Shown here in pieces: positions 57,001 through 64,000 of a stretch of DNA of 64,000 nt. Origin of the DNA: Escherichia coli O157:H7 (GTDB lineage Bacteria; Pseudomonadota; Gammaproteobacteria; Enterobacterales; Enterobacteriaceae); the NCBI RefSeq assembly GCF_013167455.1, contig NZ_CP038330.1. One strand, given 5' to 3'. How positions within the stretch are numbered: the first letter of the stretch is position 1; the number at the start of each line of letters is the position of its first letter. The position numbers are program-made.

Positions 57001-60000
57001 TTGCAGTACCAGCGTACGGCCCACAGAATGATGTCACGCTGAAAATGCCGGCCTTTGAATGGGTTCATGTGCAGCTCCATCAGCAAAAGGGGATGATAAG
57101 TTTATCACCACCGACTATTTGCAACAGTGCCTACATTTCAAAAACTCTGCTTACCAGGCGCATTTCGCCCAGGGGATCACCATAATAAAATGCTGAGGCC
57201 TGGCCTTTGCGTAGTGCACGCATCACCTCAATACCTTTGATGGTGGCGTAAGCCGTCTTCATGGATTTAAATCCCAGCGTGGCGTTGATTATCCGTTTCA
57301 GTTTGCCATGATCGCATTCAATCACGTTGTTCCGGTACTTAATCTGTCGGTGTTCAACGTCAGACGGGCACCGGCCTTCGCGTTTGAGCAGAGCAAGCGC
57401 GCGACCATAGGCGGGCGCTTTATCCGTGTTGATGAATCGTGGGATCTGCCACTTCTTCACGTTGTTGAGGATTTTACCCAGAAACCGGTATGCAGCTTTG
57501 CTGTTACGACGGGAGGAGAGATAAAAATCGACAGTGCGGCCCCGGCTGTCGACGGCCCGGTACAGATACGCCCAGCGGCCATTGACCTTCACGTAGGTTT
57601 CATCCATGTGCCACGGGCAAAGATCGGAAGGGTTACGCCAGTACCAGCGCAGCCGTTTTTCCATTTCAGGCGCATAACGCTGAACCCAGCGGTAAATCGT
57701 GGAGTGATCGACATTCACTCCGCGTTCAGCCAGCATCTCCTGCAGCTCACGGTAACTGATGCCGTATTTGCAGTACCAGCGTACGGCCCACAGAATGATG
57801 TCACGCTGAAAATGCCGGCCTTTGAATGGGTTCATGTGCAGCTCCATCAGCAAAAGGGGATGATAAGTTTATCACCACCGACTATTTGCAACAGTGCCCC
57901 CAATGCGCTGTCCAGTCATGGAATTCCCTGCAAAATGTCAGGGAAGACTCTATGACCTTCAACGAGATATGTCAATAAATTCAAAATTCAATCCTATCCT
58001 GACGCAATTTACACATGGCATCTGACATCAGGTTAGGGTATGCCTCAGTCTGACAGTGATGAGTCGCAGGCGTTCGGATCGGCATCGGTTTCGCTCCCGG
58101 TCTTGGCGCGCGCCTGGAAGCGCTGATAGCACTCCAGCCCGCAGAAGTGCTCGACGTATTCCGCGCCTTCCGGGGTGAAGGCGGCATCGAGCGGGATTTC
58201 CTTGCAGCACACGCAGCAACTGGTGGCAGTCGGATCATTTGCATTCATGGTGGCACCCCTCCATTGACTGACGAAGACGGCGAATGCCGCCGCCGGCATC
58301 GGCTTGGCGAACAGGAAGCCTTGTCCTGTGTCGCAGTCCGCTTGTCGCAACAAATCAAGACTCGCCGATGTTTCCACGCCTTCGGCCACTACTTCCATGC
58401 CAAGCCCATGCGCAAGCTGAATCACGGTGCGCACGATGGTCTGGTCGCGGTGGTCGTTGGCGAGTCCGGCGACAAACGATTGGTCGATCTTGAGCGTGCT
58501 GATGGGGCAGCATTTCAGGTGTTGCAGGCAGGAATAGCCGGTGCCGAAGTCGTCGGCGGCGAAGCGCACACCGATCTGTCGCAAAGCTTCCAGGGCGGGG
58601 AAGATCGCCGGATCACCGAACGCAACCGATTCGGTCAGCTCAATTTCAAGATACGCGGCGGGCAACCCGGCATCGGCCAGCACGCCCTTTACCCACTTGT
58701 CGAAATCTGGCCCCACTTGGCTCGCCGAAACATTGACGGCCAGCCGGAACGGTTGCCATGCCAGCACCCGCCAGTCGCGCATTTGACGGCAGGCTGCGCC
58801 CAGCACCCATGCGCCGATTTCCGGCATCAGGCCGGACGATTCGATCACGGGCAGGAACTGGCCCGGCGGCAACAGTCCGAGCGTCGGATGACGCCAGCGC
58901 AACAGGGCTTCCGCGCCGACAATCTGCTCACTGCGCAAATCGACAATCGGCTGGTAGTGCAGCTCAAGCTGCCCGCGCTCGACCGCCTGCGCCAGTTGCG
59001 CCACTGTCCATTCAATTGGCTGGGAAGCGCTCATGATCGACCTCTGAAGGCCCGCAGCAGCCGCGTCACAGACAGGACAAACAAGCCGGTCAGCGTGAGG
59101 GCTGCAATACCCCAGTGCTCGCCGATGAACGCGCCGGCCGTCGTGCCGGCCAGCACAATGGCGAGAATCGGCAAATGACAGGGACAGGTGAGCACCGCCA
59201 GCGCACCCCACAGGTAGCCGGTGAACGGCTTGTGTGTCTCGGCCGGCATGCGCTCGGGGCTGTTCATGGCAAACTCTCCGCATGCTGTGCCGGCGCGGTC
59301 GGCATGGCGGCCAACTGCACTTCCAGATTGGCCAACGCTTCGCGCCGGCGTTCGACGAACTGACGCAGCACAGCAAGCTGCGCGGCAGTTTCATCGCAGT
59401 TCGCCGCATCCAGCGCCCGGCACAGCCGCGCCAATGCGCCGAGGCCGATGCCCGCCTCGAAGGCGGCCCGCACGAAGCACAGTCGCTGCAAGGCGGCGTC
59501 ATCGAACAGGCCGTAGCCACCCGTGGTGCAGGCGACTGGCCGCAGCAATCCGCGCAGCAGGTAGTCGCGCACGATATGCACGCTCACCCCGGCATCAAGG
59601 GCCAGCCGGGACACCGTGTAGGCGTTCATCGAACACCTCCTTTTGGTCGGTTCACGGCAATGCATATACCGTTTCGCCGAGTTCAATCCGCGCGCTGCGA
59701 ATCCGATGCCGGTGCCGTAGAACATTGGGTCGATATCCGATCACGGTGTCCTAGATGACATGGTCTGCAACAGATGTCGATTAAACTCCTGGCCCAAGCC
59801 GAAAGCCTCGTGGACACTGACGATCGCCAATCCTTCCAATCCTTGATGCTTGGAGGCCCAGTCTTCCGCCGTCGGGACAGATGCAAAGAAATGTACATGG
59901 CAACAGAAGGACTGACGAACGTCGGCTGCTTCCTGCGGCAATACCAAGGACACCGCCATGCCGGCAGGTTCGACAGCCTGTATCTCGCTGGGTGAAACCG

Positions 60001-63000: not shown

Positions 63001-64000
63001 TGGCGAGGCGGATGTGACGCGGGTGCGCTTCGTGAAATCAGCCCAGCGGCTCGGATTCAGCCTCGACGAGATCGCAGAGCTGCTGAGGCTGGATGACGGC
63101 ACCCACTGCGAGGAAGCCAGCAGCCTGGCCGAGCACAAGCTTCAGGACGTGCGCGAAAAAATGACCGACCTGGCGCGCATGGAAACCGTGCTATCCGAAC
63201 TTGTGTTCGCCTGCCATGCGCGGCAAGGGAACGTTTCTTGCCCGCTGATTGCTTCGCTGCAAGGGGAGAAAGAGCCGCGTGGTGCCGACGCGGTGTAGCC
63301 GAGGGTAGTTACGCCTTAGCGTGCTTTATTTAATGAGATGGTCACTCCCTCCTTCCCGGTACTATGCTGAGGACAGGCTTTCATTCGGAGAACTATCATG
63401 GAAAACATTGCGCTCATTGGTATCGATCTGGGTAAAAACTCTTTCCATATTCATTGCCAGGATCGTCGCGGGAAGGCTGTTTACCGTAAAAAATTTACCC
63501 GGCCAAAGTTGATCGAATTTTTGGCGACATGCCCCGCTACAACCATCGCAATGGAAGCCTGTGGCGGTTCTCACTTTATGGCACGCAAGTTGGAAGAGTT
63601 GGGGCATTCCCCAAAGCTGATATCACCACAATTTGTCCGCCCGTTCGTTAAAAGCAATAAAAACGACTTTGTCGACGCCGAAGCTATTTGTGAAGCTGCA
63701 TCGCGTCCGTCTATGCGTTTTGTGCAGCCCAGAACGGAATCTCAGCAGGCAATGCGGGCTCTGCATCGTGTCCGTGAATCCCTGGTTCAGGATAAGGTGA
63801 AAACAACCAATCAAATGCATGCTTTTCTGCTGGAATTTGGCATTAGCGTTCCCCGAGGAGCTGCCGTTATTAGCCGACTGAGTACCATTCTTGAGGATAA
63901 TAGTTTGCCTCTTTACCTCAGCCAGTTATTGCTGAAATTACAACAGCATTATCACTATCTTGTTGAGCAGATTAAAGATCTGGAATCCCAGTTGAAACGA

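Follow-up and report, generated by a model that had tools for sequence, protein, structure and literature searches.

A merB-containing mercury resistance module bounded by IS26 and an IS4321-type element on an IncC plasmid of Escherichia coli O157:H7

The stretch of 64,000 nucleotides analyzed here (the window; contig NZ_CP038330.1 of Escherichia coli O157:H7 assembly GCF_013167455.1) contains a mercury resistance (mer) module of 5,433 bp at positions 57899-63331, in which merR is divergent from merT-merP-merA-merB-merD-merE-urf2. Very probably, this is a type 1 IncC (A/C2) plasmid and the segment forms the mer end of its ARI-A resistance island, carrying an intact, inducible, broad-spectrum mercury resistance operon. 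An initial annotation had described a merRTPABDE-urf2 operon without merC between these two positions; the coordinates proved to be exact, and all of the genes that it named were found. Since merT, merP, merA, merB, merD, merE, and merR score above curated cutoffs and both boundaries are exact, that observation is confirmed.

Although real, the structure is an ordinary one that was known before. The module has no mismatches over 5,433 bp to those of pSN254, pSNE2-1923, and pRMH760, and the 100% identity to pSN254 (NC_009140), pAR060302 (NC_012692), and pSNE2-1923 (NZ_CP025275) extends over positions 57899-64000, so that both insertion sequence (IS) junctions and the variant of the IS4321 element are included. 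An 8.5-kb query comprising IS26, mer, and IS4321 was at least 80% covered in 514 plasmid records, and the module alone was covered to this extent (at least 80%) in 357 records. The merA-merD junction was matched by 4,392 records, with merB being included in 408 of these. A 2007 publication (PMC1819562) already gave merRTPABDE as the gene order of pSN254, and an order of merDBAPTR with a flanking IS4321 was given for pAR060302 in 2011 (PMC3155540). What the present analysis adds is the exact site of the IS26 cut, the retention of res, the mosaic origin of the module, and a three-unit array of IS26.

Several features place the module in ARI-A. The window opens with the start codon of repA (position 1), and its initial 18 kb are 100% identical to IncC backbones; this backbone is common to the window and pSN254, pAR060302, and pSNE2-1923. 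Furthermore, the mer end is as in the reference ARI-A, and the terminal inverted repeat next to merR (IRmer) is interrupted by an element of the IS4321/IS5075 type. In relatives, what follows this element is the remainder of the repeat, then TTGTA, and then IncC backbone that leads to rhs. A 5-bp duplication of TTGTA and an insertion upstream of rhs are reportedly what defines ARI-A according to Harmer and Hall (2015).

Gene content and predicted function of the mer operon

The mer genes were called by comparing profile hidden Markov model (HMM) scores, in bits, with curated NCBIfam cutoffs (Table 1). merB is placed between merA and merD, the start codon of urf2 overlaps the merE stop codon (ATGA), and urf2 is unbroken at the point where integron In2 splits the urf2 gene of Tn21. 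A tblastn search of the whole 64-kb window with Tn21 MerC gave no match (best E = 1.2) and the gap between merP and merA is only 71 bp; merC is therefore absent.

Table 1. Features of the mer module and its boundaries, with the segments of its mosaic (window coordinates)
Feature	Position	Strand	Evidence
IS26 array truncating the module	55545-57898	-	IS26 terminal repeats located; IS6 transposase HMM, 278 bits
tnpR remnant, first 7 codons (MTGQRIG), 21 bp	57899-57919	-	tblastn with Tn21 TnpR, residues 1-7, 100% at 57919-57899
res region between urf2 and tnpR, 125 bp	57920-58044	-	Identity to Tn21
urf2 (uninterrupted "urf2M"), 329 amino acids	58045-59034	-	Pfam EAL, 1.5e-71; DUF3330, 1.8e-41
merE	59031-59267	-	NF010310, 145 bits (cutoff, 80)
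merD, coregulator	59264-59629	-	NF033783, 237 bits (cutoff, 170)
merB, organomercurial lyase	59741-60379	-	NF009710, 323 bits (cutoff, 193)
merA, mercuric reductase with N-terminal metal-binding domain	60394-62079	-	NF010311, 1089 bits (cutoff, 600)
merP	62151-62426	-	TIGR02052, 147 bits (cutoff, 92.6)
merT	62442-62792	-	NF010314, 228 bits (cutoff, 150)
mer operator/promoter	62828-62858	-	-35 TTGACT, 62858-62853; 19-bp spacer; -10 TAAGCT, 62833-62828
merR	62864-63298	+	NF010315, 307 bits (cutoff, 261)
Inner 17 bp of the 38-bp terminal inverted repeat (IRmer)	63315-63331	+	Exact match, sole copy in the window
IS4321-type element, first 669 bp	63332-64000	+	IS110-family transposase HMM, 200 bits (cutoff, 140); Pfam DEDD_Tnp_IS110
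Mosaic segment: res right half and tnpR stub	57899-58047		100% to Tn21 (149 bp), about 65% to pNY5511-OXA
Mosaic segment: merE and urf2	58034-59200		About 100% to the pNY5511-OXA transposon
Mosaic segment: merD, merB, and 3' half of merA	59200-61250		86-97% to the pNY5511-OXA transposon
Mosaic segment: merR, merT, merP, and 5' half of merA	61250-63331		About 100% to the Pseudomonas aeruginosa pNY5511-OXA merRTPADE-urf2-tnpR-tnpA transposon

The placement of merB, the absence of merC, and the conservation of the MerB catalytic residues agree with the broad-spectrum organization proposed in the initial annotation and point to a product that would act on organomercurials. The exact MerB sequence is catalogued as MERB_KLEPN. 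With regard to the broad-spectrum operons of R831b and pDU1358, MerB of the window is identical at 211 of 212 positions to the crystallized MerB (PDB 1S6L/3F0O) and retains Cys96, Asp99, and Cys159; based on this near identity, broad-spectrum resistance is predicted. We take the crystallized protein (PDB 1S6L) to be that of R831b, and the gene order merR-T-P-A-B-D presumably corresponds to that of pDU1358, which, like R831b, has merB between merA and merD and no merC. A literature search returned nothing usable on pDU1358 in an IncC context. The remaining key proteins were compared with those of Tn501 at the protein level, via PDB entries: MerA is approximately 93% identical to the Tn501 MerA core (PDB 1ZK7) and contains the CVNVGC motif, the C-terminal CC pair, and the N-terminal GMTCxxC motif, and MerR is approximately 93% identical to Tn501 MerR (PDB 5CRL) and has the three metal-binding cysteines. 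Within the 19-bp spacer of the mer promoter, a MerR dyad, TCCGTAC-ATTG-GTACGGA, can be read from the sequence, in a layout that we assume to match that of merOP in Tn501 and Tn21.

Given what is established about the mer pathway, the operon is predicted to confer inducible resistance to both Hg(II) and organomercurials. MerR would repress the merOP promoter and, in the presence of Hg(II), activate it; import of Hg(II) would be the task of MerT and MerP, MerB would cleave the carbon-mercury bond of organomercurials, and MerA would convert Hg(II) to volatile Hg(0). MerD and MerE would have accessory roles, and the urf2 product is predicted to be an EAL-type phosphodiesterase-like protein. It is conceivable that the operon is instead a decayed relic, in which merB or other genes are nonfunctional and resistance is narrow spectrum or lost altogether; a loss of selection is plausible for plasmids of Salmonella and E. 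coli from food animals, and MerR has a phenylalanine in place of a cysteine beside Cys117. However, all eight reading frames are full length and above the curated cutoffs, the catalytic and metal-binding residues of MerB, MerA, and MerR as well as the operator/promoter are intact, and the 5.4-kb module has no mismatches to those of pSN254, pSNE2-1923, and pRMH760. Hence, we regard decay as highly unlikely and favor an intact operon.

Boundaries of the module and its missing transposition genes

At the merR end, the module finishes with the inner 17 bp of a 38-bp repeat, CTTAGCGTGCTTTATTT, of which one copy was observed in the window versus zero expected by chance. The window ends inside the IS4321-type element, and therefore the outer 21 bp of the repeat, TCCGTTTTCTGAGACGACCCC, followed by TTGTA, are visible only in relatives, beyond the complete element of 1,327 bp (measured at positions 13066-14392 of relative L001). 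Because the outer half follows the IS in these relatives, the repeat is interrupted and not deleted. The restored 38-bp repeat has the sequence of IRtnp of Tn21, and no second copy of either half was found within the 64-kb window. The inserted element belongs to the IS1111/IS110 group and is of the IS4321 type. Its DEDD transposase begins at position 63398, the subterminal repeats ATGGTCACTCCC (63338-63349) and GGGAGTGACCAT lie near its two ends (the latter end being seen in relatives), and it is identical to the pSN254 copy, which is annotated by PGAP as IS4321 family. Site- and orientation-specific insertion of IS4321 and IS5075 into 38-bp repeats is known behavior (PMC11187229 and PMC12189595). 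Consistent with this, in all eight of the repeats compared, from six loci, the IS had an identical orientation and was preceded by the same 17 bp, and the initial annotation was thus correct that the repeat beside merR is interrupted by an IS110-family element that targets such repeats.

By analogy with other IS1111-group elements, an RNA from the 3' noncoding region of IS4321 probably acts as the insertion guide. Within this region (L001, positions 14233-14268), AAAACGGAAA spans the insertion point in its match to the bottom strand of the target, and TATTTTC and TTTTCTG do so in their match to the top strand. Matches to both target strands are a feature of the seekRNAs of other IS1111-group elements (PMC11187229), and the sequences of IS4321 are compatible with that model. 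An Rfam scan of the IS4321 region identified no bridge or seek RNA family.

In different IncC plasmids, a 100% identical mer module carries different IS4321/IS5075 variants at the same base of IRmer: over the first 669 bp, the element of the window shows 0 mismatches to that of pSN254, 26 to that of pRMH760, and 49 to that of p.BML2526 (IS5075). These different variants at a fixed base point to IS turnover or gene conversion. The positions of IS variants in the relatives are 11325 in L009, 20907 (minus strand) in L010, and 1176 (minus strand) and 13124 in L011.

At the other end, the initial annotation had placed IS26 beyond urf2. IS26 does truncate the module, but it does not abut urf2, as 125 bp of res and 21 bp of tnpR intervene, and it is not a single copy but an array of one complete and two partial copies. 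The complete copy (820 bp) occupies positions 55545-56364, and the partial copies (767 bp each) occupy positions 56365-57131 and 57132-57898, where the IS26 end (...GCAACAGTGCC) stops. The two partial copies are identical to each other, lack the first 53 bp, encode the G184N variant of Tnp26, and differ from the complete copy by three substitutions, at IS26 positions 207, 208, and 362. The sequences flanking the array, GTCGCGC and CCCAATGC, are not a target duplication. As the cut lies within tnpR, res is retained; the tnpR remnant is identical to Tn21 at the DNA level, and a tnpR promoter-like sequence, TTGACA-17-TAGAGT, is present at positions 57975-57947.

pSN254, pAR060302, and pSNE2-1923 have two IS26 units at this position, in contrast to the three in the window, and some relatives have one. 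A three-unit array was not found among the best plasmid matches, which all span 1,649 bp (two units); coverage figures from the plasmid search with the array were inflated by its repeated pieces and are unusable as counts. A literature search yielded no usable account of the partial duplication of IS26. The third unit arose by unequal crossing-over or is an assembly artifact. A more far-reaching and, in our estimation, unlikely possibility is that the array expanded in situ and that the three IS variants at IRmer mark repeated RNA-guided excision and reinsertion, or gene conversion, at a "landing pad"; if true, the locus would naturally document IS turnover at a site specified by a guide RNA.

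The initial annotation also stated that the transposition module is missing, and this was borne out. A tblastn search of the 64-kb window with Tn21 TnpR detected only codons 1 to 7 (57899-57919), and a search with Tn21 TnpA detected no homologue in the window beyond a 19-amino-acid fragment at positions 46827-46883. An intact tnpA/tnpR module adjacent to the operon, which would contradict this view, was looked for and not found: the IS26 side is occupied by the ARI-B resistance island, and the IS4321 side leads, in relatives, into IncC backbone up to rhs. The 19-amino-acid fragment matches the C terminus of Tn21-family TnpA, lies downstream of strB, and is not part of the mer module; we take it to be the Tn5393 transposase remnant that is usual in ARI-B.

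With one interrupted repeat, no transposase, and no resolvase, the module cannot transpose on its own and can move only along with the plasmid or through rearrangements that are homologous or mediated by IS26. The opposite reading, that it is still an autonomous or readily mobilizable transposon, for example through precise IS4321 excision or as part of an IS26-bounded unit, draws on the interruption of the repeat without deletion and on excision being said to restore the repeat (PMC12189595), as well as on the intact res and on IS26 copies at positions 17955-18774 and 19199-20018 that could mediate cointegration or recombination. However, there is a single 38-bp repeat, split 17/21 by IS4321, instead of two intact ones, the other end is an IS26 junction inside tnpR, and neither tnpA nor a full tnpR is present in the 64 kb. 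Furthermore, the IS26 copies of the window bracket backbone and ARI-B but not mer, the other side of which is formed by the IS4321-type element and then, in relatives, by IncC backbone. Autonomous or ready mobility is therefore very improbable, and we treat the module as immobile by itself.

Mosaic origin of the module

Alignment with Tn21, a check proposed in the initial annotation, revealed that the module is not the Tn21 mer region but a mosaic. Compared with Tn21 (R100, NC_002134), the layout is that of the same Tn21 subgroup, the 149 bp of res and tnpR start are identical, and the restored repeat equals IRtnp. However, the mer DNA is only 80 to 86% identical, and Tn21 has merC, no merB, and an urf2 split by In2. 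A sliding comparison with Tn21 and with the transposon of pNY5511-OXA (NZ_CP096935) delimited the segments listed in Table 1. The pNY5511-OXA transposon is about 100% identical at the DNA level to the window in merR, merT, merP, the 5' half of merA, merE, and urf2, its MerR and MerT proteins are identical to those of the window, and it likewise has no merC, in a Tn501/Tn5051-style organization. It differs in lacking merB, in diverging by 3 to 14% from the 3' half of merA through merD, and in having its own right half of res and its own complete tnpR and tnpA (TnpR and TnpA being 82% and 94% identical to those of Tn21, respectively). merB is located within a segment of 738 bp (59645-60382) that merB-less relatives, including pNY5511-OXA, do not have. 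A clean insertion of merB was considered and rejected, as divergence extends into merD and the 3' half of merA on either side.

The switch to Tn21 lies in res. Site I (TCAGACTGAGGCATACCCTAACCTGA, at about 58024-58049, overlapping the urf2 stop codon) has a left half of the pNY5511 type and a right half of the Tn21 type; because the Tn21 identity of positions 57899-58047 meets the pNY5511-OXA identity that begins at position 58034, the switch is placed in the site I core. Such a switch is the signature expected of a resolvase-mediated exchange between two transposons. We searched for the predicted chimera, consisting of the urf2-res part of the window and tnpR-tnpA of Tn21. Three plasmids, pRMH760 among them, contained it over 1,314 bp at 100% identity. 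The mer module of pRMH760 is identical over positions 57899-63331, has the same insertion point of an IS4321-type element (with 26 of 669 positions differing) and the same backbone neighbors, and continues into a full Tn21-type tnpR and tnpA, the products of which are identical to the Tn21 proteins, and then into IRtnp, in which IS5075 is inserted, at the same backbone position. The window, in contrast, has lost everything after tnpR codon 7. Since the pRMH760 chimera continues into Tn21 TnpR and TnpA, the window module is a pRMH760-type hybrid transposon truncated by IS26. This agrees with the title of a paper by Harmer and Hall (2014; cited in PMC12189595), in which pRMH760 is presented as a precursor of A/C2 plasmids that carry blaCMY.

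In many annotations and papers, ARI-A is described as containing the plain mer module of Tn21 or Tn1696, and the island has been called Tn21-like or Tn1696-derived (PMC3155540 and PMC6591265). Such a label could be derived from the terminal 149 bp and the restored repeat, which match Tn21, and from the left end of ARI-A in pSN254, which bears a tnpA/tnpR module with an integron by tnpR. The TnpR and TnpA proteins of this left-end module are 82.7% and 88.3% identical to those of Tn21, respectively, and from its organization and the literature, we take the module to be Tn1696-like. Its tnpR start reads LQGQRIG, whereas the stub in the window reads MTGQRIG, with 73% DNA identity over 90 bp, and the sequence upstream of it also differs; pairing of the mer module with this left-end module was therefore rejected, as the tnpR remnant is of the Tn21 type. 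With the divergence from Tn21 described above, the presence of merB, and the absence of merC, the Tn21/Tn1696 label is refuted for the mer genes, and the uninterrupted urf2 also speaks against it. We thus consider it extremely improbable that the module is simply that of Tn21 or Tn1696 and retain the mosaic.

Based on these comparisons, we propose the following sequence of events. A merRTPADE-urf2 transposon like that of pNY5511-OXA would have gained merB through an approximately 2-kb homologous replacement from the 3' half of merA through merD. A resolvase exchange at res site I would then have joined this mer module to tnpR-tnpA of Tn21, in the form still present in pRMH760. Subsequently, the 38-bp terminal repeats may have become targets of site-specific insertion by IS4321-type elements, for which an RNA from the IS 3' noncoding region probably served as the guide, by analogy with other IS1111-group elements, and finally IS26 would have removed everything from tnpR codon 8 onward.

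Several points weigh against parts of this interpretation. The order of the historical steps is deduced from a handful of extant sequences, and the merB "patch" could equally represent a loss or replacement in the lineage of the pNY5511-OXA transposon (L008). The guide match is modest, since a 10-nucleotide match was reached in 18 of 1,000 shuffles, and the region in question is located outside the window. The absence of tnpA applies to the 64-kb window, and a Tn21-family transposase may be encoded elsewhere on the source plasmid. Lastly, the function of the operon is deduced from its sequence.

Plasmid context and implications

Upstream of the IS26 array, the window contains ARI-B with sul2, strAB, tetRA, floR, ISCR2, and a resolvase-like gene (44300-55544). 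This is also the case in pSNE2-1923, whereas pSN254 has the tniB/IS1326/integron part of ARI-A instead: the IS26-mer junction of pSN254 is preceded by tniB, IS1326/IS1353, and the class 1 integron, and its tnpA-tnpR module is located at the opposite extremity of ARI-A, approximately 17 kb from the junction; the integron adjoins tnpR in this module, and IS5075 interrupts its repeat. The rearranged context also takes in window positions 17955-20120, which include the two IS26 copies named above; the copy at 19199-20018 truncates traB after approximately 34 codons. Positions 20019-44000 represent backbone that is inverted relative to pSN254, and traV, traA, and blaCMY-2 are absent from the 17955-20120 and 44300-55544 stretch of the window. 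The simplest account would be that IS26 copies in opposite orientation, belonging to ARI-B and to ARI-A, first mediated an inversion; a subsequent deletion adjacent to IS26 would then have stripped this stretch of the integron, the tnp module at the left end of ARI-A, the region of blaCMY-2, and a number of tra genes. The plasmid is probably transfer defective. Related arrangements are present in pSNE2-1923 and pRM094_1.

A 424-bp fragment at positions 18775-19198 lies between two oppositely oriented complete IS26 copies and corresponds to the left edge of the former ARI-B. The record of pSNE2-1923 (NZ_CP025275.1; L006/L007), the closest relative, is a linear record of 125 kb in which the ISCR2-resolvase-IS26-IS26 partial segment occurs twice, at 54 to 62 kb and at 115 to 123 kb, and it may be an incompletely resolved assembly.

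As a discovery, the significance of the locus is limited, since hundreds of IncC plasmid sequences contain the operon and its IS26 and IS4321 boundaries. Its use is for annotation, in which the label of a Tn21 or Tn1696 mer region should be avoided for this module. The mosaic provides a worked example of the evolution of mer transposons, with a crossover in res site I, a merB patch, and an untruncated form in pRMH760. As the module is immobile by itself, its spread tracks the plasmid and IS26 rearrangements, and the predicted resistance to organomercurials and Hg(II) can coselect the linked floR, tet(A), strAB, and sul2 genes.

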